The notes under the pieces are model-generated. The model was not told the DNA's origin. It saw only the letters and a program-made list of their open reading frames with translations, and did no database searches. DNA of 64,000 nucleotides from a virus. The stretch lies in IMG/VR virus record IMGVR_UViG_3300021420_000016, positions 90,049-154,048 of that record, one strand, 5' to 3'. The position numbers and the translations under genes are program-made. The first letter of the stretch is position 1; every line of letters begins with the position of its first letter. Below are positions 51,301 through 64,000 of the stretch, piece by piece.

Positions 51301-52129
51301 GTGCTGCTCGTAGGTGTGATCTCCGGAGTCGTGCAAAGGGTGCTCCGGGCATCCCTGCTCCCGGCACGCCCGATCCGGGCACCGCGTGCGAGGGTCCAGG
51401 TCGATGCACGTCTCGCGCCCCGCCTCGTCGCGCACCACCAGGACGGGCGGGGAGATGGCAGGGTCGCGCATGATTCCGTAGCCCGCGCGGGCTGCCTCGT
51501 CGGGCGTGTCGACGTCGTCTAGTTCGACCGCCAGTGTCACCATGTAATGCATCGCTTACCTCTAGTTAGTACCGTGGCGGGTTCGTCACTTGGTACCAGT
51601 TCCCGCAGTCGTCTTCGGTGTAAGTGCCGTCACCGCCGAGGGGCAGCCGGTCATGACTCCCGGCGCCCGGGAGGCGAAGCGGCTCGCCCGTGAGTGCGGC
51701 AAGTTCGCGCGCCTCGGCGGGGCCGTAGTCGTTGCCTTCGTCGCGCTGGGTGCACAGATCCTCAATGCGCGCCTCATCGCGCCAGCGTGCCCACTGCCGG
51801 GCCTCTCCGGGCGACACAACCGCGCCGGGGTCACCTGCGGCCCACTTCGCCGCGCGGTCGTACGCCTCGTGGTAGGCGCTCAGCCAGCGCCACCGATGCG
51901 GCGCGTTCTGCATCGTGGCCGGCCCGGGATGACCGAGCGCGGACGCTAGCGCCGCTTCGCCGGCCGCGTCCCGCGTGAACGCCGGAACGCCGGTCACGGC
52001 ATGCCGGCGCGCGAGGATGCGCGCCTGGCCCTCTGTCGTCGTCGCCATTTGCCTTGTCCCTTCGCCCTTGGTCTGATCGTTCGCTCATCCCGCCCCGGTC
52101 CCGAGTGGTACCGGGGCGGTAGCCAGCGG

Positions 52130-52507
52130 TCAGGCGCGCACCCAGTAGGCCACGCCATCGAACGTGACTTCGGTGTAATCCATCTTGAGATCGTCAGCGG
52201 CGGCGGCCCAGTCGATGCGGTTGGCTGGCCAGTCGGCGTCTCTCTGGATTGCGCCGATGTCCTCAGCGAACTCGCGGGCGTAGTCCTCGAAATATGAATC
52301 GCGGATCAGCCCGGCGCCGCCCCGCCAGTCGCCGGCGTGCATCTCACCTTCGGCGGCCAGGGCTCGGAGCGCGGCCAGTTCGGCGGTCTCGTCCTCGTCC
52401 AGCACGTACACGCCGTCACTGTCCGCGAGGTTTTCCAGTTCGGTGATCCGTTCGATAACCTCGCGGCTGTCGATAACGTCGCGGTCGCTGGTGATCGCGT
52501 CAGGCAT
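52130..52507 (-). CDS. ArdA-like antirestriction / DNA mimic protein
   Basis: Highly acidic; FEDYAREFAEDIG..WPANRIDWAAAADDLKMDY resembles the ArdA C-terminal domain. Confidence 0.6.
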   Translation of the reverse strand: MPDAITSDRDVIDSREVIERITELENLADSDGVYVLDEDETAELAALRALAAEGEMHAGDWRGGAGLIRDSYFEDYAREFAEDIGAIQRDADWPANRIDWAAAADDLKMDYTEVTFDGVAYWVRA

Positions 52508-52511
52508 TGAC

Positions 52512-53522
52512 TTACGCCTCCCCGCGCAGGTAGGCGCCGTAACGGTCCCCGAGGAACGCGCGAAGCTCGGCGGTCTGGCCCCCGGTCAGGTCATACATGC
52601 GACGCGCCTCGCGGGTGGTCTCCAGCCCGTATTCGCCGGCCCAGTCGGCAAAGTCGCGGGCGTTGTCGTAGCCGGCGGCGTCGTCGGCCAGGCAGCGGAG
52701 CACGTCACGCGCCGTGGGCGGGGTAGGCAACCGCGCCCCGCGGATGATCTCGGTATGCCCGGAGCCCATGAAAAACGGCACGGTCATCGACGCGCCGGCC
52801 GCGTTCGTCAGCGTGACATCCCACCATTGGCCGTGGCTTCCGCGGTCGCCAGTGGCCCACGCGGGCGGGGACTCGCGCGTCGTGGCTACCGCGGTGATCC
52901 CATCGCCGCTGATCGTCGCGCCCGGATCGAACGCCCGTGCACCGCGGAACAGGTCACGGACCCGCTTGAGCGTCCCGGCCGGCAGGTCCCGCAGCAGCCA
53001 CGCCGACCCGTACCGGTAGCCACCCGGCCGGGCCGGGCTCTCGTCCGTCTCGGGCTCGCCCGGATGCAGGCGCATAGCGGCAGGGGTCCGGCACGGCGGG
53101 GTCAGGTCGAGGCTCACCCGCTGGCCGCCGTACCCGTCATCTTCCATGACCGGCGCTTGGTGGTCGCATCCGGCGTTCATGTCATTGAGGTGCAGCGGCG
53201 CCAGACCGGCCAGCGCGGCCACCTTGGCCGCATCCCAGCCCGGCGCGAACTCGGTAAGCGCGGCGAGGATCTCCGCAGCGTCACCTGATGCGATCATGTC
53301 GGCGCCGTTCGGCTGCCACACCGCGGCAGTCATGGCGAAGTCGACCGGCTTGCTCACCTGCCGGTGGTCGGTCGTCTCGTAGGTGCGCCTGTCGAGGCGT
53401 TCCATGCGGACATCGACGGTCACCGGGCACCGTCCGCGGTAGCCGTAGCCCTCGCCGTCGACGTAGCCGACGTGCACGTTTTCGGCATCGAACACTGTTT
53501 CGCCGTTCAGTCCTCGCGCCAT
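52512..53522 (-). CDS. Two-domain hypothetical phage protein
   Basis: LHLNDMNAGC.HQ and GYRYGSAWL domain, then FFMGSG..PTARDVL.CL..DA..F.DW..EYG domain. Confidence 0.65.
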   Translation of the reverse strand: MARGLNGETVFDAENVHVGYVDGEGYGYRGRCPVTVDVRMERLDRRTYETTDHRQVSKPVDFAMTAAVWQPNGADMIASGDAAEILAALTEFAPGWDAAKVAALAGLAPLHLNDMNAGCDHQAPVMEDDGYGGQRVSLDLTPPCRTPAAMRLHPGEPETDESPARPGGYRYGSAWLLRDLPAGTLKRVRDLFRGARAFDPGATISGDGITAVATTRESPPAWATGDRGSHGQWWDVTLTNAAGASMTVPFFMGSGHTEIIRGARLPTPPTARDVLRCLADDAAGYDNARDFADWAGEYGLETTREARRMYDLTGGQTAELRAFLGDRYGAYLRGEA

Positions 53523-53831
53523 GTCCGGCGCTCCCTTCGCCTCGGTCCTGCTATATCGTGATGATATCATGCCCATGCGTGGCACGCTACCGGCTAGGCC
53601 AGTTCCGGCCGTCCCCTCTGAATAATCGTTCCGTCATCGCTGGTCCAGATGGGATTGACGCTGATCTCACGCCCAGCCGCATCCCTGAAAATCGCGGCAG
53701 CCATCGGGTCACCCCCGCCGCTCTCCACCGTGCACGTGTAGCGGGCCATGTCCAGTCCATACGCGGCCAAGTCGGCGCGTAGCTGTTTCTCGATCATGCG
53801 ATGCAGCGCAGCACCAGAGACCGCGCGCCGG

Positions 53832-54104
53832 TTACCGGCCGTCACGGCGACTACCGTCTTCCCAGTAACGATGTTTGGACGTCTCAGCCCGCGAAGGATG
53901 CCTAGCGGCGGCGAACGCTTCCCATTCGGGGCGCCGCTCAGCGGTCCATCCCCAGTCTTCCCCGCCTGACCTAGAAAAAAGCACGACATCCGGAATCGGG
54001 AAGTCATCGCGGCGGGCAAGCCAGTTAGACACAGCCGCACCTGTTACCCCGGTCCACTCGGCAACCACGCTTTGCCCGTAGGCAACCATAGGTCGATCTG
54101 TCAT
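53832..54104 (-). CDS. HTH DNA-binding protein (candidate array regulator)
   Basis: YGQSVVAEWTGVTGAAVSNWLARRDDFP.P..W. Confidence 0.7.
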   Translation of the reverse strand: MTDRPMVAYGQSVVAEWTGVTGAAVSNWLARRDDFPIPDVVLFSRSGGEDWGWTAERRPEWEAFAAARHPSRAETSKHRYWEDGSRRDGR

Positions 54105-55094
54105 CGCCTTTACCTGCCCTCCCGCGCTAGCCGCGCGTCTCGCTGCTGGTCGTTCTCCACCTGGAGGACGTAACCGCTCCCGTCGTTCATAGGCGCGCGG
54201 TAAACCCTCTTGCCCACGTCCCCCGGCAAGATCCGCCCCATGAAGTCGCCCACGGACCAGGCGCGGCCGAACGCATACAGAGGCGCCCGCCCCACGTCGC
54301 CCTCCATGAGGGTGTAAAATGCCGTGGCGCCTTCGCGGTAGGCAACCTCGCGCACGTTGACACCCCCGTCCGCTTGGTATATGTCGATAGCCAAATGGCC
54401 ATCCTCGGTGGTCCTGAACGCCACTAGGCAGCCGCCTGCGGCTGATGACACTTCCACGATGCGCTCATTTGGCCCGGCGTAGTTATTCGCCACGCACCGC
54501 GTTTCCACACTTGGCTTACGTCCTCTTGCCATTGCTCCAAGCCCCTTCGCCCTTATCTGATTTAGCCCGCCCCTCCCGGGCTAGTGCCGTACCGCGTCCC
54601 GGCCAGCGTGCACGGGAAGCCGGCGGCCCCCGTCGTAACGCTGGATCACTTCAACACAGTTATCGCCCCACGCCCGAATGCCACCCTCTCGCACCAGCTC
54701 GATGATCTCGGCCGCCTTGGAGTCGTAGCAGGGCCGGCACATGTTCGTAACGTGGCGGCGCTGCTCACCCCCCGGGGCGGTAACCCATTTGATCAGGAAC
54801 CGGCCGACCGCGGCCGGCGGGCTGGCGTCGTGCCCTTTGCCGGCGTAAAGCTCGCATACTGGCGTGCTCATCGTGCCCCGCCTCCTGTCTCGCCGGCTTG
54901 GCGCCGGTCTAGTTGCGCGTTGAGTACGTGCTGAATCCCGCGAGAGTAGGCGGCCAGGAAGTCATAGCGGTCAGACCAGGCCGGTTCCTCCGCGGGTGTC
55001 TCATGGGACGCCACGACGGCCGGTTTACCGGCTAGGACGTCGCGGGCATCCTGGCATCCGGCCGCGAATCCGCGCGGGAAAATATCGGTCATGG

Positions 55095-55769
55095 CTAGGC
55101 ACTCTCGCCCGCGGTGGCCGGGTGCAGCGGGCAGGCGCCGGCGTGCTCGACCTGGCCGCTACGGTGGTTGAGGGTGCCGGTGCACTTCGGTTCATGGGTA
55201 AGAGACTCGGCTACCTGCTTAGCCTCGTCTTCGGCTTCGCTGTAGCCGTAGATCCCCCAGCACGCCTCAACCTCTTCCCCGTCGATGGGGTCGGTGATCG
55301 TGTAGCCGTAAACCTCCCCGTTCACGTACTGCCCGTACGTCTCGACATCGCCGGTAATCAGCCGGTATGCCTGCTCCCGGTCTGCCTCGCTCCCCGTCCA
55401 GGGCTGGCCTTGCGTGTCCGCCCAAATCTGCGGGGTCACATACGCTAGCCCGGCCTGGCCCGAATCCCAGTCCCCCGGATCGCAGTCTGAGAAGTCCCGG
55501 CCGGCGCGCAGTGCAATGCCGGAATGGTCGATCATGTAAACCGGCGCGACGACTAGCGCACCCTCAGCGGTCGTCAGGTGCTCTGCGATCTCGGCCCACC
55601 CGCCGAAGTCGTCAAAGTTGACCCCGGCATCGTTGGGGAAGTCCCAGCTCCGGGCGGCCATGACCAGCCCGCAACCGGGCGAGTCGTCGTCGCGGGGGGA
55701 TGAGGCGTCCTCATCCGGGAAGATCTCGACGGTAAAGCCGTTAACCTCGCTTGTGCTGATCGGTTGCAT
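55095..55769 (-). CDS. Acidic conserved phage protein
   Basis: D.DA.SPRD, PVYMIDHSG, WDSGQ.G, ETY.QY..GEVYGY, CWG.YG. Confidence 0.7.
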   Translation of the reverse strand: MQPISTSEVNGFTVEIFPDEDASSPRDDDSPGCGLVMAARSWDFPNDAGVNFDDFGGWAEIAEHLTTAEGALVVAPVYMIDHSGIALRAGRDFSDCDPGDWDSGQAGLAYVTPQIWADTQGQPWTGSEADREQAYRLITGDVETYGQYVNGEVYGYTITDPIDGEEVEACWGIYGYSEAEDEAKQVAESLTHEPKCTGTLNHRSGQVEHAGACPLHPATAGESA

Positions 55770-56077
55770 GTGCCCGTGTCCCTTCGCCTTAGTCGCCTTA
55801 GCGGACGCTGCACCGCGCGGATAGCGGGGGATACCCGCGCGGTCCCGTGCTCGCTAGGGCTCGATCCGCTCGGCGTGAATGTCGGTGTTCAGCACGCCGA
55901 GCGGATCTATGATCTGCCGCGCAAGGCGCACCGCGTGACCCTCATCGGTGATGCCTTGCACGTCGGCGTCAAGGTAGAAGACTGGCACCTGAACCGAGCC
56001 GCGCCAGTGAACGTCGTGCCCATGTTCGTAGGTGCGCACCTGCGCGGTAATCGCGTACATCATGATTGCTCCCGCTC

Positions 56078-56707
56078 CTAGGAGTGCCGGCCGTCCGCCT
56101 CGCAGCCGATTTGACCGCACCCGCCGCAAAAGTCGCCATCACTGATCGGGGTGAGGTCGGACACGTCGACGTCTTCGGGCCGGTCGTCACCGATCATGAC
56201 CGCGGTGACCATCCCGTCGACCGCATCGGTGCTCACGATCCGCCACGCCACGCCGGGGGAGTCGGCCACGGCATAGGCGGAATCCATGTCCAGCCCGTGA
56301 GGCTGCACGTGCGAGCGCGCTTCACGCTCCACCTCGGCCCAGAATGCGCCCGATGCCGCATCCATGTAGGCCAGCTCCGCATCGTTCAGCCCGGACTCAT
56401 CCGGGTCGGCGTCCTCATCGATGTCAAGATCTGCGGCCAGGTCACGCGACGTGTAATCGCCGCTGTACTCGCCCGACAGGTCGGGAGTCCGGTAGGCGTC
56501 CATGATTTCCGGGTCACCCGCCTCGATGCCGCGGAGGACTCGCCGGTATGTCTCGCCGGCCGTGTTCCCGTCGAACACCCACCCGGCCGCGCTCTTGCCC
56601 GCTTCCGCGCCGAGTTGCCGCGCGTGCTCTAGCGTGCCCTCGGTGTAGTCCGGCTCCCGCGAGATATCGACGTCATAGCTTGCCGGCATCCGTGGCGTGT
56701 CACTCAT
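56078..56707 (-). CDS. Very acidic protein (DNA mimic candidate)
   Basis: D/E-rich; C-terminal FCGGCGQIGC. Confidence 0.6.
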   Translation of the reverse strand: MSDTPRMPASYDVDISREPDYTEGTLEHARQLGAEAGKSAAGWVFDGNTAGETYRRVLRGIEAGDPEIMDAYRTPDLSGEYSGDYTSRDLAADLDIDEDADPDESGLNDAELAYMDAASGAFWAEVEREARSHVQPHGLDMDSAYAVADSPGVAWRIVSTDAVDGMVTAVMIGDDRPEDVDVSDLTPISDGDFCGGCGQIGCEADGRHS

Positions 56708-56784
56708 GTCCGTTAGTCCCTTCGCCTTTAGGTTCTAGCTGGTATCGGAACGTACGGGCGGGCCGGCCGCACGCTCCGGGCCGG

Positions 56785-56940
56785 CTAGTAGGTGAGGCTG
56801 CCGTTGCCGACGCCGGCGCGGAGTTGCGCCTTGTCAGTCTCGGTCAGGCCGGCCCACTCGCGCTTGAAATCGGCCAGCCGGTACCCGTCGACCTTGATCG
56901 CGCTGTAAACCTCGCCCATGGTGGCCGCGTCGTTCGCCAT
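56785..56940 (-). CDS. 51-aa protein (not in ORF track)
   Basis: MANDAATMGEVYSAIKVDGYRLADFKREWAGLTETDKAQLRAGVGNGSLTY, preceded by the 10-mer and a promoter. Confidence 0.8.
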   Translation of the reverse strand: MANDAATMGEVYSAIKVDGYRLADFKREWAGLTETDKAQLRAGVGNGSLTY

Positions 56941-58800
56941 TGCCCTGCTGTCCCTTCGCCTAGGTTGAACTATGCTGCCATGATATCACGCCGATATGAC
57001 AGAACGCGAGGGTTCGCGCCGGTCAGTCTGCCGTGCCCGTCTCGGCCGGCATCCTGGCAAAACTCAGATACATGGTGGAGTAAATGACCTCGCTTCCGGT
57101 GTAGTCATTCCATCCCTCGCGGTTATCAACCGAGATAGCCGCAAGATGCCCGTACTCAGTGATGGCACCCATAGCCGGCTCATACTCGGCGGGCAGGTCC
57201 GTACTGTCGTCAAGGTCAATGCAGTACGCATCAGCGAAGACGCGCCACTGCTCACGGGTGAGGATGCCGGCCCACTTGCGATGCATGCCCGCGTTCGGGC
57301 AGGTGCATTCATCCTCACATTGACAGTCCCGGTCCGCATACGGCAGATAGCGCGGGCTACTGCCCTCTTTCACCAAATACCCGAAGTCGTATTGTTCGTC
57401 CCCTTCGGTTTGAGTGAATGCCTCAGTTATTGCCGTGATCGTTTCGTCAGGCCGGCGGCCCGCGGGCACGTGACGCGCCGGCGACATGCTCTCGATAAAC
57501 CCCGGGTAGTCGGTCACCACGTCAGCGTCATAGATCACGTAAACGTGAGTCCAGCCGGGAAACTCCGCGTCACCCATTACCATCAAGTCCCTTCACCTTG
57601 CCCTAGCTAGTCCTAGGGACTAGCGGCCCGCCACACTCGGCGCATGGTTGGCCGCTGGCCCATAGGCCGGTTAGCTCTTGTCGTCCTCAACCCAGAACGT
57701 CACCGCATCACGGTTCCCGCCTAGGGTGCTGCCACACGTAGCGCATGCGGACCAGGAAAACCCCAGGTCTTCACATTCGCAATCGTCCGCGATTTGCAGC
57801 TCATGAAACGTCACGGATGCTACCTCGGTAGCCGGCCCGCATCCGTGCTGCCACCGCGCGTCGTCCGCGTCGTCCGCGTCGTATTCGTACTCTGCGCCGG
57901 CCACGTCGGTAACAGTGCAGTTGGCAGCGCACCCGTGGTACTGCGCCAGCATGCCTAGAGTGACCTCGCACCCTTCGGTGATGCGGTTAAACCGCGCTAT
58001 GAAGTCCCGCCGCTGTTCACCGGTCCATTCCGGGTCCGTCTCACCGTTAGCCAGCCACATAAGGCAATCGGTACAGCACCCGTCCGGCGCGTTCCCTGTC
58101 AGTGTGCGTCCCATGATCGTTACCCCTTCGCCTAAGATGCTCCTATGATATCACGCCGATATGGTGCTAGGGAGTGTTTTCCCCGGTAGCCTCACGGCAT
58201 GCGGTCACGCGCGATTGATCCGGTAACGGAACGCCGAACGTGCCAGAAACCCCGGAGTTTCACTGTAGGACTGAGCTATAAGCGTGAGAGTCACGCCGTG
58301 TTCCGCCTGGTATGCTTTGCGCGCCGCGTTGATCTGCGCCGCGCGTGAACGCCGGCCGGCCGTGTCGTCCGCGTTGATCCACACATAGTCGCCTATGGCC
58401 TGCGGATTGTCGTTGTATGCGGTCACGTCTCTGCCCCTTCGCTTAGCAGTAGGACGTTGCCAGGGTGACCTGCTCACCGTCATCAGACATGCGTATCAGG
58501 ACACCGGAAAAGAAACTGTCATTGTGTATGCCGTGCCAGCCTGCCCGCGCAAAATCGCCGCCGGGCTCGACACGCCTAAACTGATCTAGGGAGTACAGCT
58601 CACCGCGGAAACGCACGAACGTAGCGGAATCCGCGCCGGCGTCGATCTTCGCCCAGTCCAGGTAGTCAAAATCGTCGCGTTCCGCCGGCGTTAGCTCACT
58701 GGGGTCGACAGTGAACCGTGGCACGTTGTTAGTCCGTATCGTGACCCTGCCGTCACTCATGGCCTGGTATCCCTTCGCCTAGTGGATGATCTGTCCTAGT

Positions 58801-58849
58801 GCCTGCCGTGACTCCGAGGTCACGCCGTGCCGGTCCCTACCGGGCAGGC
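58801..58849 (-). ncRNA. Structured leader, three-way junction, copy 1
   Basis: P1 gcctgc/gcaggc, P2 cgtgac/gtcacg, P3 ccggt/accgg. Confidence 0.55.
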
Positions 58850-59271
58850 TTGTTGACTCAGCTAGAACACCGGCCGGCGGGGTCACATCCAACATAGATA
58901 GTCGGGTGTGTGGCCTGGGCATCGTAGCCACCGATCCAGCCGGCGAACCATCCCGCGGGCAGATCGAACGCCGGCGCATAGTGCGCGGGATTGTAGGCCA
59001 CGTGGAAACGCTCGCACAGTGCCGACAGTGCCGAAGTCTGCGCCGGCGTCATAGCCGGCGAGAGTGTCACCGTGCCGACATCCCAAGCGCCGGAATGCCC
59101 GCGCCGGCTACCGGCGCCGGGGATGACGCGCGCAATGCTGCCATCGGCGAACAGTTCCGTAACCGTGCCGAACCATTCCCCGATTTCTGAATTGTCCACC
59201 CTAACGTACTGCCCTACCTGAAACCCTCGCATGACTGCCGCCCCTTCGCCTAGTGCGTGATCTTGCGTAGT

Positions 59272-59318
59272 GCCTGCTATGGCTATGACGCCATACCGGC
59301 CGACTGCGCCGGGCAGGC
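59272..59318 (-). ncRNA. Structured leader, three-way junction, copy 2
   Basis: P1 gcctgc/gcaggc, P2 tatggc/gccata, P3 ccggc/gccgg; same 30-nt offset from the 10-mer. Confidence 0.55.
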
Positions 59319-60595
59319 TGGCCTAGCTACGCCGGTTCGGTATCCAGCCAAACCCCGTCACGGTGCAGGTACAGCGGAGTGACCTTAAAGTGATACGCGC
59401 GCCGTGGTCCGAGCATCCAGCTTGACATGTCGACCGGCCGGCCGTTATCCGGCCGCGCGCCACGGGACAACGGGAAGGCATGCCAGAGCACATACGGGCC
59501 TGTAGCGCCAAAGCGAAACTCACCGTCGCGCCGCTGGTCCGTGTCGTAAGGATTCCAGCCTGCACAGTAGTGCGGCACTACAGCCTGCCCGTCGTCAAAC
59601 AAAGCTATGGCCTTGACCGCGTTGCCCAGTGGCAGAGCTGATGCGTCATCGCACGGCATGTAGATGCCGGCCGTAGGGTACTCGGCGCGGGAACCGTCCC
59701 CCCGGACCAGGGTGCCGCTGTACATCACAGCATGACCGCCGGCGTACTCGCGGGTCGGCTCGTGATTGTCCAGAGCCGTGCGCCAGTGGATCACTTGCAC
59801 GTCGTAATTGTGCAGGCTGGCCTGCTCCGCGTACTGTGCACAGTCTGCCCGCATGTCTTCGTAGGAGCGGAATTCTTGCCTTGCCATCGCCGATCGTTTC
59901 CCTTCGCCTAGTTCGGTTCGGTTCGTATGTCTCCCGGCAATGCCAGCGTGATCGGTCCGGCTGGCACTCCCGGGAGTCATGCGGCCTACAGCCGGACTGC
60001 GCTGATATGGATAACCGGCGCCGGCCGGAGCGTTCGCACGTATCGTCATGGGTGGTCCCTTCGCCTGCTGACCTGCTAGAATGTGTTGTGTCGCTAGGGT
60101 TTGCCGTTAAGCAGCCAGCCGTGCCGGCCACCGTCCCATGTGAACGTGATGCCGTCACGCTTGATAACCGGCGCATGGCCGTAGCGGCTCGCGTGAAACA
60201 CGGGGTCGACGGTGGCCAGCATGCCGCAGGTCACGCACCGTTGCGCGAACCTGCGGAGGTCGGCCAGCTCCGCGTGAGTGATCTCACCGTAAGTGTCGTT
60301 CTGCGGCATTGCCGGCTACCTCGCCGGCCGGCACTTGGGCATGTGCGGGCAGGTAGTGACCCGGGAGCAGTCATCCCGTGGGGGAAGGCTGCCCGCCGTC
60401 CACTGATCGAACGTGGCAGGGTAGGCCTGCCCGTTGTGCTGGCCGACGTACACACACTCGGCGTAACCGGCAGTGCAGTGGCAACGCGACTCGCACGCGG
60501 CACAGTCGTAGAGCCTGCCGGGCTCATGCGGATAGTCCGCGTGCGCCGGCTCGCTGGTCTTGGTCATGCCCGCTACCTCCCTGGTAGTGATTCAA

Positions 60596-60932
60596 GGATT
60601 CCAGAATACCACGCTTGCAAGGATTCCGGAATCCCCCTATCATGCGATCATGGGACGGACACGCAGCGAAGACGGACGCCGTAACAACGTGTCCGCCAAA
60701 CTGAGTGACTCGGAGCTGGCGTCCGTCAACAGTGCCCGCGGGAACATGCCAGCAGGCCAGTGGGTGCGAGGCGTCATCCTTGCAGCACTCCCAGGGGATG
60801 CCGCAGAACGCGCGCCGGCCACACCACGGGCGAGGCGTACCAGGCCAGCCAAGCGGGATACCGGAATCCTTGATACAGCCACAGACAAGGATTCCGGAAT
60901 CCCCCATACACCTAACAGGGATACCGGAATCC
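60596..60932. repeat. Five 14-bp palindromes GGATWCCGGAATCC
   Basis: 60596 (degenerate), 60621, 60856, 60889, 60919. Confidence 0.9.
60615..60643 (+). promoter_or_regulatory. Promoter with palindromic operator in the spacer; leaderless start
   Basis: TTGCAA-ggattccggaatccccc(17)-TATCAT-6 nt-ATG. Confidence 0.8.
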
Positions 60933-61003
60933 CGGAGTGCCCGCACCCCAAAGCAAGAGTCATCCGCGGATACTGCGGAGCATGCGGACAGCCAGCCAGC
61001 TAG
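60650..61003 (+). CDS. Ribbon-helix-helix type DNA-binding protein
   Basis: RRNNVSAKLSDSELASVNSARGNMPAGQWVRGVILAAL; C-terminal CPH..YCGACG. Confidence 0.7.
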   Translation: MGRTRSEDGRRNNVSAKLSDSELASVNSARGNMPAGQWVRGVILAALPGDAAERAPATPRARRTRPAKRDTGILDTATDKDSGIPHTPNRDTGIPECPHPKARVIRGYCGACGQPAS

Positions 61004-61014
61004 GGTCACCCGGC

Positions 61015-61115
61015 TAGTCACACCGTGACTACTCGCCACGGTGACCGGCCTCAGCCGATCACCCACTCGGCTAGTCACACTGAAACTAGCCCGGCCACTA
61101 GTCACACTGTGACTA
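61015..61115. repeat. Three 17-bp palindromes TAGTCAC-N3-GTGACTA
   Basis: 61015, 61072 (right arm degenerate), 61099. Confidence 0.85.
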
Positions 61116-61141
61116 CTCACAGACCTCCGACCGGCGGACCC

Positions 61142-61276
61142 TTACTCACGCTGGCCTAGGCGGTCGGCTAGGCAGATCTCGACATGGCCGAAGCCTTCAC
61201 AGCGCGGGCATGGCTTGCCGGTCGGCGTTTCTGCTTTGCCGTGACAGGCAGGACATAGGGCTACGTCGTAAAGCAT
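61142..61276 (-). CDS. 44-aa DnaJ-type zinc-finger peptide (not in ORF track)
   Basis: MLYDVALCPACHGKAETPTGKPCPRCEGFGHVEICLADRLGQRE. Confidence 0.7.
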   Translation of the reverse strand: MLYDVALCPACHGKAETPTGKPCPRCEGFGHVEICLADRLGQRE

Positions 61277-62513
61277 TGGCTAGACCAGCTTTACCAAGAG
61301 GTCACCGCGGGAACCTTTGGCCTTCAATGTGGTGATGTAGGAACGCCTAAGCCAGTCGGTACTCACGCCGAACAGATCAAGGTCACCACCGGCCATAGTC
61401 TCAAGATGCGCCATGAAAGCATCCATGCCATGATCGGCAATGTACAACATCGCATCCGTGCGGCCGATGATCAGGTCATAGCGGAGTTGTTGGGTAAGCA
61501 TTGCGTGTCCCTTCGCCTGTGCGCGCGTCTCGCGCGTCTATCCCTATCCAGTCGCATGCGTAGCCTTCGCTGGCATCGTTGCCCGTGCACGCTACGGTGC
61601 GCTGCCCGTGCCCGTTCCGGCCGGCCTTACGGATGCGCCGGCCGCAGTCTGGGCATGACTGCCCGGCCATGCCCACGGGTATGGCCGGGCAGTGAACGGG
61701 TGACCTAGGCACGCGCGTCCGTGCCAACGTCGGCTATGTAGCCTGCCAGCGTGGATGTCAGACGGTCCGGTCCCCAGAGACGTTCCGCGAGAGTCCAGCA
61801 CCCGTCACAGATCAGGCCATGTTCGCCGGTCTGCGCATGGCCGACACAATCGCGGTGCAGTTGGCTCTTGTCCGCCCCCGATTTGGGCGCGAACGCATGC
61901 CCGTGCCGACCGATAGGGTCACCCGGGTGATGTGCGGCACGGTTACACGTGGCGCACCGGTCGGCCGGTAGCAAAGTACTGAACGCCGGGCCGCGCGTGT
62001 CGTCACCGTTGGCGTAGTCGGCCATGATGCTGGCCACGGTGCGCTCCAGTCGGCCGGCCACGGTGCGAGCCGTAGGCATGGCGTGGACGTCCGCCTTCGT
62101 GCGGAGGTCGGCGATAGCGTCGCTCAGTTCATCCACGGTGCGCTCCAGTGCAGCGCGCAAGTTGTCGGTATAGGCACGGCGGTACATAGGTGATCCCTTC
62201 GCCTAGGTTGCGTCCGTATGGACTAGGGGTGCCCCGTCCCGTGCTGGCACGGTTCACCCGTGGCCCATACGGGCTAGTCGGACGATTCGGAGTGGTCGTA
62301 AAACACGATGGGGCGGACGGGGTGACCGTTGCTGTAGAACCGCCCGGTCTCGGTCAGGCGGTAGCGGTACCCGCCGCAGTCCGGTATGGCAATGGGTCCG
62401 ATGACCTCGGTCACGATGCCGCGGTAGGCGGTACCCATGGTGACGCACTGACCGACGATCACGTCACCGATCTTGGCGTCCGGCGTCCTGGTGGTGCTCC
62501 GCAGAGTGCTCAT

Positions 62514-62575
62514 ACACACATGATAATGCATCTTATCGTGTGTGCATAGGCAGTTAGCTCTGATATCATGACGGT
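62514..62575. promoter_or_regulatory. Divergent leaderless promoters at the head of the array
   Basis: Minus strand TATCAT (62525-62520) 6 nt before ATG 62513; plus strand TGATATCAT (62561-62569) 6 nt before ATG 62576. Confidence 0.7.
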
Positions 62576-62964
62576 ATGACGATCACCGACCCTAAGCACA
62601 GAGGCGACTGTGAGCGTGACCTCTGGGCAGGTGACTGCCCGTGCGTCACAGGACAGTCGGCGCCAACCTACTGCCAGCATTGCGGACTCGATATCGTGCG
62701 CGACTGGCGCGGCGTTTGGGAGTCTAAGGGACTCACCCCCGCCGTGAGGCGAGAGTGCTGGGACTCACCAGACCACAGGCACCAGCCGTGAGCAGGCCAT
62801 TCGCGTGGATGACACGCAAGCAGGCCACGGCGGTGCAGGCACGTACCTGCCCGTTGTGCGGGATGCCGCCCGGCTGGCTGTGTCGCACGCCAGGCAAGTC
62901 CGTGGCGGACGCGCGGGAATTGCGCTACCCGCACCCCGCTAGGCGGGATGCCCCCCAGGGGTAG
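62576..62964 (+). CDS. Two small zinc-finger proteins (62576-62791; 62788-62964)
   Basis: CPC..YCQHCG..C; CPLCG.PPG..C.T..HPAR; GTGA overlap. Confidence 0.7.
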
Positions 62965-63213
62965 GGGAGACGGCCCGACCGCCCGATATCCGCGGTCGGC
63001 TTGGGTGGCCAGCACATAGCCACTTTGCCTATTGTTAAAGTAGGAAATTTTTCCTTCGACCACCCCTCCAACTTTCGTGTCCCATTTTCCCTCCGCACGT
63101 AAGCCGCTCATGCCCGTCATGCTATGGCTCGTCCCTGACGTTTTCCTTGCACTGTTCTTGATCTCGCACGTAAGGGGCCTCGCGCTATGGCGGCATTGCG
63201 CTATAGTTACTTC

Positions 63214-63408
63214 ATGGCTAGGGACGTGCCCCCGGAGGGGCCTTGGGTGAACCTGTCGGTGTCGTTGCGCCAAGCCGACCGCGAACGGGCAGAGAGGGCC
63301 GCAGGGGCTGCCGGGCTGCGGAACGCGAGAGGCGAACCGAATGTGAGCGCCTGGGCGCGGCCGGTCCTTCTCGCGGCTCTGGATGCCACCGAAGGCGGCA
63401 CCTCGTGA
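63214..63408 (+). CDS. Small RHH-like protein
   Basis: VNLSVSLRQADRERAERAAGAAG..NVSAWARPVLLAAL. Confidence 0.6.
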   Translation: MARDVPPEGPWVNLSVSLRQADRERAERAAGAAGLRNARGEPNVSAWARPVLLAALDATEGGTS

Positions 63409-64000
63409 AACATTTGGTGCAGTACTCCACCGGAGCCGCTTCCGCCGAGGTCGCATATCGCGCAGTCCAGGAGCACGGCTCGGAGAACGTTGTACTCCTG
63501 TCCGCTGACACCCTTGTCGAGGACCAGGACAACTGGCGGTTCGGCGACGAGGTAGCGCGCCTGCTCGGCTGCGAGTGGGTTATCCTCGCCGATGGCCGTA
63601 CCCCCATGCAGGTAGGCCGTGACCGGAAAGTCGTCCCATCCGACCGGCTGGATGTGTGTTCTCAGCTCCTCAAACGCAGGGTGCTCTGGGATTACATGCA
63701 GCGAAACCACGACCCCGCTGCCTCTGTGATCTACATCGGATATGACTGGACTGAGCCGCACCGGTTCAGGGCGGCACAGCCCAACTGGGCACCTTGGACC
63801 GTCCGCGCGCCCCTCATGGATCCTCCGTATATGTGGAAGCAGGGCATCCTCGACACTTGGCGCGAGCGCGGGATCGCACCGCCCCGCCTGTATGGCCGGG
63901 GCCTCGGGCACGCCAACTGCGGCGGGTTCTGTGTTCGCGGCGGTATAGCCGAATGGAACAAGGGCCTTGAGGCTGACAGGGCCGGCTATCTAGTCTGGGA
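63405..64000 (+). CDS. PAPS-reductase / adenine nucleotide alpha-hydrolase-like protein, truncated by window end (not in ORF track)
   Basis: Translated by hand: MKHLVQYSTGAASA..ADTLVEDQD..CSQLLK..IYIGYDWTE..RLY..G.GHANCGGFCVRGG. Confidence 0.8.
   Translation, partial: MKHLVQYSTGAASAEVAYRAVQEHGSENVVLLSADTLVEDQDNWRFGDEVARLLGCEWVILADGRTPMQVGRDRKVVPSDRLDVCSQLLKRRVLWDYMQRNHDPAASVIYIGYDWTEPHRFRAAQPNWAPWTVRAPLMDPPYMWKQGILDTWRERGIAPPRLYGRGLGHANCGGFCVRGGIAEWNKGLEADRAGYLVW

Follow-up and report, generated by a model that had tools for sequence, protein, structure and literature searches.

The 64,000-nt window analyzed here is the final part of a 154,048-bp phage genome (IMG/VR record IMGVR_UViG_3300021420_000016; CheckV completeness 98%) whose source assembly is a soil metagenome, and it carries, from ~44 to 62.3 kb, a dense minus-strand array of small ORFans. 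Two of the gaps between these genes contain a short element, here termed copies A and B, that folds into a three-way junction and is the subject of this analysis. The G+C content of the phage is 0.62-0.72, and it is probably an actinophage, because its nearest cultured phages, which are distant and connected through one protein only, infect Streptomyces, Microbacterium, and Gordonia. Among GenBank phages we found no DNA similarity to the region or its modules by megablast or blastn, and no relative by tblastn with the 186-residue protein encoded upstream of copy B. Pfam domains were identified in none of the six proteins scanned from 57.6-60.3 kb and in none of seven scanned flanking proteins. 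The early-gene arrays of this phage group are presumably transcribed as polycistrons. A start-associated 10-mer, AGGCGAAGGG, which includes the Shine-Dalgarno-like sequence GAAGGG, is present as 17 exact minus-strand copies located 7-12 nt ahead of start codons. The array has few promoters; an extended -10-like sequence, TGATATCAT, is found at six other gaps only and at neither of the element gaps, where linkers A and B carry GATCAT and GATCAC in its place and a consensus scan identified no promoter-like site. G+C-rich hairpins directly after the stop codon are also found in most other gaps of the array.

Read along the coding strand, the two gaps have the same layout, consisting of a stop codon, 8 nt, a three-way junction of 47-49 nt, a 20-nt linker, AGGCGAAGGG, 9-10 nt, and the ATG of the next gene (Table 1). 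The junction is built from a 6-bp closing stem, a 5-bp hairpin 1 that follows the 5' closing strand directly, and a 6-bp hairpin 2 that abuts the 3' closing strand. All of the pairings described for these copies in a first-pass annotation, made from the letters of the window, were recovered: the closing stem of 58801-58849 and 59272-59318 is GCCTGC...GCAGGC in both (GCCUGC/GCAGGC as RNA), the 6-bp stems differ in sequence (CGTGAC/GTCACG in A, TATGGC/GCCATA in B, each with a 6-nt loop), and the 5-bp stem has one compensatory change (CCGGT/ACCGG in A versus CCGGC/GCCGG in B). The linkers had been considered related and are identical at 14 of 20 positions. The proposed fixed distance to the 10-mer applies to this genome, where both copies start 30 nt from a plus-strand CCCTTCGCCT (at 58771 and 59242), and does not extend to the related contigs L155 and L240, which differ in both distance and start motif. 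Similarly, the label of leader is accurate only in part, as each element is the leader of the next gene and also the 3' flank of the preceding gene; because the genes lie on the minus strand, the elements are intergenic spacers. The 124-aa gene between the two copies has a codon-position G+C pattern typical of a real gene and, compared directly, is not a paralogue of the 105-aa gene that follows copy A.

When each copy was folded alone, the three-way junction was the minimum-free-energy structure, with an ensemble probability of 0.53 for A and 0.69 for B. A strict descriptor requiring perfect stems of 6, 5, and 6 bp matched both strands of the 154-kb genome at A and B only, and found one match in six Markov-simulated genomes. 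Covariance models built from A and from A plus B likewise identified just two copies in the genome; the match ranked next (52058-52121, E 0.3) is a simple hairpin whose linker is similar. Between A and B, 17 of 17 pairs are kept with four double changes and one GC-to-GU change, although these two rows give no significance because 38 of 500 shuffles scored equally well. The hairpin at 52058-52121 and another at 54543-54580, both on the minus strand, are simple post-stop hairpins with linkers that have GATCAG or AATCAG before a variant of GGCGAAGGG, and these linkers resemble the AGATCA of A and B and the AGATCAGGAGA start motif of contigs L153 and L157. Pairing of the 5' closing strand with the spacer between the Shine-Dalgarno motif and the ATG was also considered and was found to be too weak and not conserved.

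The element is a real, conserved, and unannotated structured element that is present beyond this window. Four further copies were identified on three related contigs from soil metagenomes: A' (L151), C and D (L155), and E (L240), the last of these by a covariance model. L151, a 1,106-nt JGI contig, was the one true match from a metagenome scan. All three stems of A' are those of A, and it differs only in the unpaired 5-nt spacer (CACGG to UCUCG), a variant seen independently in a Logan contig of run X6, which belongs to a different soil study. The 145-aa gene adjoining A' has 24 homologues (59-78% identity) on soil contigs of up to 160 kb, and these contigs contained the three other full copies and one degenerate variant. 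This protein family (L151:194-631 and homologues P0002-P0025) consists of ORFans of 130-145 aa with an N-terminal IPGYGPDAS and no Pfam domain, and is absent from the 154-kb genome, though the same junction modules flank it in relatives. The contig of copy E was chosen only for encoding the neighboring protein family, with no preselection by nucleotide pattern. Copy E is preceded by TAG-CUAGGCCA, exactly like B and A', this 8-nt spacer after the TAG at copy B being identical in L151 and L240; its hairpin 1 stems are those of B, its hairpin 2 has one compensatory change relative to B, and its linker and GAAGGGG motif align with those of B. Across the copies the module comprises a stop codon, 7-14 nt, a junction of 45-51 nt (closing stem 5-6 bp, hairpin 1 5 bp, hairpin 2 5-6 bp), a linker of 20-39 nt, a ribosome-binding or start-associated motif, and a start codon. 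In all copies the element is intergenic, on the sense strand, and directly after a stop codon.

Table 1. Coordinates of copies A and B and their surroundings (positions in the window), and of homologous copies and modules on related contigs.
Feature	Position	Strand	Remarks
Stop codon TGA of 124-aa ORFan gene 58858-59232	58858-58860	-	copy A begins 8 nt downstream
Three-way junction, copy A (49 nt)	58801-58849	-	closing stem 58844-58849 with 58801-58806
Hairpin 1, copy A	58830-58843	-	5 bp, loop AGGG
Junction spacer, copy A	58825-58829	-	5 nt
Hairpin 2, copy A	58807-58824	-	6 bp, 6-nt loop; abuts 3' closing strand
Linker A, ACUAGGACAGAUCAUCCACU	58781-58800	-	20 nt; includes AGAUCA, also found ahead of the Shine-Dalgarno motif in relatives
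10-mer AGGCGAAGGG at copy A	58771-58780	-	10 nt before ATG 58760 of 105-aa gene 58443-58760
Stop codon TAG of gene upstream of copy B	59327-59329	-	gene start probably ATG 59887 (186 aa)
Three-way junction, copy B (47 nt)	59272-59318	-	closing stem 59313-59318 with 59272-59277
Hairpin 1, copy B	59296-59312	-	5 bp, 7-nt loop; no junction spacer in B
Hairpin 2, copy B	59278-59295	-	6 bp, 6-nt loop
Linker B, ACUACGCAAGAUCACGCACU	59252-59271	-	20 nt
10-mer AGGCGAAGGG at copy B	59242-59251	-	9 nt before ATG 59232 of 124-aa gene
Copy C	L155:1317-1367		closing stem as in A and B; hairpins GCGGU/GCCGC and GCUAGG/CCUAGC
Copy D	L155:6503-6552		closing stem GCCCU/AGGGC; hairpin 1 CCGGU/GCCGG; hairpin 2 CUCACG/CGUGAG
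Copy E	L240:5411-5455		same sequence in L241; model R3, E ~4.5e-5
Degenerate variant without hairpin 1	L240:4923-4966		
L151 junction module			95% identity to A; B-like 5' flank
L151 hairpin and 10-mer module	matches 59894-60000		90% identity
L151 10-mer region	matches 60055-84		

Other candidates were rejected on inspection. Pattern scans of IMG/VR returned 77, 50, and 99 stretches, all of which were chance matches or coding sequence (e.g., L196, the C-terminus of an ORF, open reading frame), and none of 43 pattern matches among GTDB species genomes was real. L146, with a covariance-model E-value of 7.6e-5, has the motif within a signal-peptide coding region on the other strand. No copy was present in the IMG/VR contigs L167 and L168, or in L153, L154, L157-L164, and L242-L245, and the IMG/VR relatives of the 105-aa gene have neither the element nor the 10-mer. 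We found one relative of the 124-aa gene and none of the 152-aa gene that follows copy D. A search by cmscan against Rfam release 15 (families including tRNA, hammerhead and other ribozymes, and leaders; E up to 10; a score at or near the gathering score as the criterion), covering window positions 56000-64000 and L151, L241, and L155, gave no match overlapping a copy. The first-pass annotation had remarked that no hammerhead core is visible.

In a four-row structural alignment all 17 pairs are retained in 100% of cases, seven of them with changes on both sides; the covariation score was reached by none of 500 shuffles, and slid controls were 18-41% paired. When all six copies, which represent four independent lineages, are considered, standard pairs fill 100 of 101 cells (in E, the basal pair of hairpin 2 is A-A), 10 of the 17 pair positions vary, with two to four pair types each, and the same junction is the minimum-free-energy structure of every copy. 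The covariation that had been claimed from two copies is thus borne out over six. The most invariant parts are the closing stem GCCUGC/GCAGGC and the CGG/CCG of hairpin 1. Two U-G pairs in hairpin 1, one in C and one in D, become C-A mismatches on the opposite strand, and for this reason a sense-strand RNA is favored over double-stranded or antisense DNA. Further homologues exist, their stems covary, and no known RNA family or terminator was matched, these being the three points on which the first-pass annotation had made its proposal depend.

The genes around the element differ from one relative to the next. Comparison of L151 with the 154-kb genome revealed three matching stretches, all of them intergenic modules with 75-95% DNA identity, and the L151 junction module is a hybrid in which a B-like 5' flank is joined to an A-like body. 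None of the four L151 genes is at the corresponding place in the genome; three lack any counterpart, and the fourth is represented only by a paralogue (48% identity) at another location. Across 59043-59330 a Logan contig from run X2 is identical to the genome, and the match ends precisely at the upstream stop codon. One X2 Logan contig joins 58180 to 59043, skipping 862 bp that hold copy A and two genes; with only 29 nt on one side of the joint, it is a low-confidence deletion variant and was not relied on. When the genes flanking the copies were compared all-against-all by BLAST, the sole match was the known pair of 145-aa and 130-aa proteins. The repeat is confined to the gap sequence, since the genes on either side are not paralogues. 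Related phages each have a private combination of post-stop hairpin, linker, and start motif: TTCCGGA-N4-TCCGGAA with AGATCAGGAGA in L157, CCGAGCCAA..GGAG in L155, a hairpin with GTGCCTAG in L163, AGGCGAGAGG in L240, and TTGACACGTGTCTAC with AAACGGAGGC in L167. As the ~90-nt module is better conserved than the surrounding genes, it may double as a homology patch for cassette exchange. With regard to such recombination, breakpoints at module edges in mosaic relatives and the hybrid B/A module of L151 were observed, and recombinants or circles were not.

The reading that we tentatively favor is that the element is a sense-strand RNA boundary element which would stabilize or process the transcript at gene ends, insulating neighboring genes within a cassette-exchange module. 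The first-pass annotation had proposed an unannotated structured RNA serving in processing, stabilization, or protein binding, or a folded-DNA recombination site; the unannotated conserved fold stands, and each of these roles is putative. We infer that the element acts as RNA, with a stabilizing or processing role. It is not the leader of one gene family, because the genes downstream of the copies are unrelated. In the mechanism that we envisage, the early-gene arrays of uncultured, actinophage-like soil phages of high G+C content would contain a composite junction module, with the element as its structured core. Transcription would read through the junction without RNA polymerase being stopped, the single-stranded linker would be cut, and the junction would then shield the 3' end of the upstream cistron from 3' exonucleases, decoupling neighboring genes in stability and translation, while the conserved flanks of the module could double as recombination linkers for cassettes. 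A comparable arrangement is known from the early genes of phage T7, where the RNase III sites are single irregular hairpins, each about two helical turns long, whose processing gives the upstream message a protective hairpin at its 3' end and releases the leader of the downstream one. The elements described here are likewise structured and positioned in gaps of a polycistronic early transcript, but none of their helices exceeds 6 bp (12 bp if stacked), which would make them poor RNase III substrates.

Several observations weigh against this boundary role. There is no RNA run among the public runs listed with this DNA. For the processing step, the linkers have no conserved cleavage motif; mycobacterial RNase E prefers RN/CNU (PMC10641625), of which inspection by eye revealed one occurrence in linker A and none in linker B. 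The stability of the structure is ordinary for its G+C content, with z-scores of about -1 for the whole gaps and of -1.0 for the element alone in copy A (-3.3 in copy B). Both of the U-G pairs that indicate the sense strand are loop-closing and carry little weight. The alignment used for the pair counts was fitted by hand with loops padded by N, MAFFT having given no structural alignment, and the counts lean toward structure because C and D were recognized partly by their fit to the fold; their covariance-model E-values before inclusion were 1.4 and 0.29, respectively, and copy E is the sole unbiased confirmation. In addition, perfect palindromes can persist via template switching during replication without selection on an RNA.

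The element is an unnamed three-way-junction motif within a kind of phage intergenic regulatory or junction cassette that is already known. In the promoter-early stem-loop (PeSL) cassettes of T4-type phages (Arbiol et al., 2010, PMC2839356; Comeau et al., 2014, PMC4122927), ORFans are reshuffled when conserved intergenic modules recombine with one another (PMC2839356). Like PeSLs, the modules described here reach from an ORFan's stop codon to the start of the ORFan that follows, carry a stable structure with a Shine-Dalgarno motif behind it at the 3' end, are repeated in ORFan-rich regions, and are better conserved than the genes they flank, with whose insertion, deletion, and replacement they are linked. 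They differ in belonging to another phage group and host phylum, in having no sequence similarity to PeSLs, and in the absence of a sigma-70-like promoter from the two modules of this genome. Furthermore, where PeSLs have a simple hairpin of a G-run and a C-run, these modules form a three-way junction whose stems covary and which has no U-tract. A second parallel is provided by the start-associated sequences (SAS) and extended SAS (ESAS) of Cluster K mycobacteriophages (Pope et al., 2011, PMC3203893), in which a lineage-private asymmetric motif is also located a few nucleotides upstream of the starts of non-structural genes and a subset of sites has an additional upstream inverted-repeat feature. 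The SAS is a 13-bp sequence, GGGATAGGAGCCC, as opposed to the 10-mer AGGCGAAGGG. The ESAS is an imperfect 17-bp inverted-repeat pair with a spacer of 4-13 bp that abuts the SAS, whereas the element described here is a three-helix junction of 45-51 nt, is at least 20 nt upstream of the 10-mer or start motif, and is present in two copies per genome.

It is feasible, though rather unlikely as the whole explanation, that the role of the module is in DNA only, as a PeSL-like homology patch for the swapping of ORFan cassettes by phage recombination, with hairpins that are either incidental or work as folded single strands of DNA in replication or recombination; such a role is also compatible with the boundary RNA as a second function. 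The conserved junctions between unrelated genes, the hybrid module of L151, and the X2 breakpoint exactly at a stop codon are all consistent with it, as is the fact that A and B flank a single ORFan, an arrangement that yields deletions and mini-circles in PeSL phages (PMC2839356). Homology, however, needs no pairing, and yet 10 of the 17 pair positions have changed with pairing retained, the U-G pairs fit one strand only, and the A' variant alters only an unpaired spacer. There is also no site-specific recombinase nearby, the sole tyrosine recombinase (genome positions 69950-70444) being ~80 kb away, and no Y1 transposase. The integron attC site, which similarly depends on structure over sequence, follows each promoterless cassette ORF in an array, and functions as a folded single strand, was considered and is not supported: the element has no R''/L''/L'/R' boxes, no GTTRRRY core motif, and no adjacent IntI or attI, it is located at only two of ~20 array cassettes, and the U-G pairs favor RNA.

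RNase P cleaves some phage and operon RNAs, and an improbable but specific alternative to the boundary RNA is a tRNA-like punctuation. The closing stem and hairpin 2 would stack coaxially into a 12-bp minihelix resembling an acceptor and T-arm, RNase P would cut its 5' side, and RNase Z or an exonuclease would trim its 3' side, converting the polycistron to single-gene mRNAs. The stack is 6+6 bp in A, A', B, and C, 5+6 bp in D, and in E 6+5 bp including an A-A mismatch; only in D is hairpin 2 separated from the 3' strand, by one A; and every copy begins with a G-C pair. Five copies have A-C as the 3' flank and D has G-C, which recalls a discriminator base followed by C74, and the 7-nt loops of C (UGCAAGC) and D (AUCAAGC) resemble the T-loop consensus UUCRANY. 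These features are a resemblance to tRNA only: ARAGORN identified no tRNA in the window, neither RF00005 nor another tRNA-like Rfam family matched any copy with E up to 10, the loops of A, B, and E, at 6 nt, are no match for a T-loop, the stem is preceded by A or G where U is preferred, and position 75 is not C. If this explanation were true, early transcripts would be cut into single-gene messages in the manner of mitochondria by an element of <50 nt that is missed by current tRNA and Rfam models.

We consider it similarly improbable that the element is a terminator or attenuator that works without a U-tract and permits graded read-through along the array. Its G+C-rich structure comes right behind the stop codon, an arrangement shared by most gaps of the array, and PeSL stem-loops terminate transcription in Escherichia coli (PMC2839356). 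Neither copy, however, has a hairpin with an immediate U-rich tract, the stem being followed by ACUAGG or ACUACG, and a scan of 11 kb identified a single terminator-like site, which was elsewhere. Mycobacterial RNA polymerase does not terminate in vitro at hairpins without U-tracts, even with NusA and NusG (PMC3993855), a result that counts against termination here in that the host of the phage is probably an actinobacterium. Intrinsic termination is therefore unlikely.

There is also a slim chance that the element is a binding site through which a phage or host protein, such as a translational repressor or RNA chaperone, controls a subset of early genes. The conservation of the closing stem and of the hairpin 1 CGG/CCG beyond the needs of pairing would be consistent with this, and the few copies per genome would suit a specific regulator rather than a generic boundary. 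Conversely, the downstream genes are mutually unrelated, the element is 20-39 nt from the ribosome-binding site and has no conserved pairing with it, and no candidate binder was identified.

That the element has no function, being a short palindromic repeat spread by duplication or recombination whose stems are kept perfect by replication template switching, would agree with the few copies, the ordinary stability of copy A, and the four adjacent spacer changes of A', which resemble a single complex mutation event, but is highly improbable given that four phage lineages with unrelated hairpin 2 sequences share the three-helix architecture, the stem lengths, the strand, and the location after a stop codon, and that template switching corrects single hairpins and leaves the conservation of the whole junction unexplained.

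If the fold works as RNA, it would be a compact structured motif new to Rfam, and the boundary role that we favor, if true, would make it a marker of the borders between genes in the rapidly evolving early regions of large, actinophage-like soil phages without cultured relatives. The module offers a clear example, from phages other than the T4 type, of intergenic modules whose conservation exceeds that of the flanking ORFans, extending the idea of regulatory cassettes as "linkers" of modular phage evolution. A short insulator or stabilizer for high-G+C hosts could serve operon design, and the module helps to define gene starts and cassette borders in such genomes.

Additional features were noted in the same array. 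The 240-aa ORF 59327-60049 upstream of copy B runs through a conserved hairpin module (~59931-59975), and because of this its true start is probably the ATG at 59887, giving a product of 186 aa. Immediately upstream, at 59888-60066 on the minus strand, two 10-mers (60057-60066 and 59900-59909) are 157 nt apart with no credible gene between them; this segment looks like an emptied cassette, since a 74-aa gene sits between the same two modules in L151. Window positions 60568-61279 (712 nt) have no minus-strand gene and are rich in repeats, with palindromes like GGATTCCGGAATCC and TAGTCAC..GTGACTA. The tetranucleotide CTAG, which is normally rare in high-G+C DNA, is very frequent after post-stop hairpins or in linkers (window positions 52000-62300 and the gaps of L153, L157, L163, and L240), for instance in TAG-CTAGGCCA, ACTAGG, and GCTAGC.

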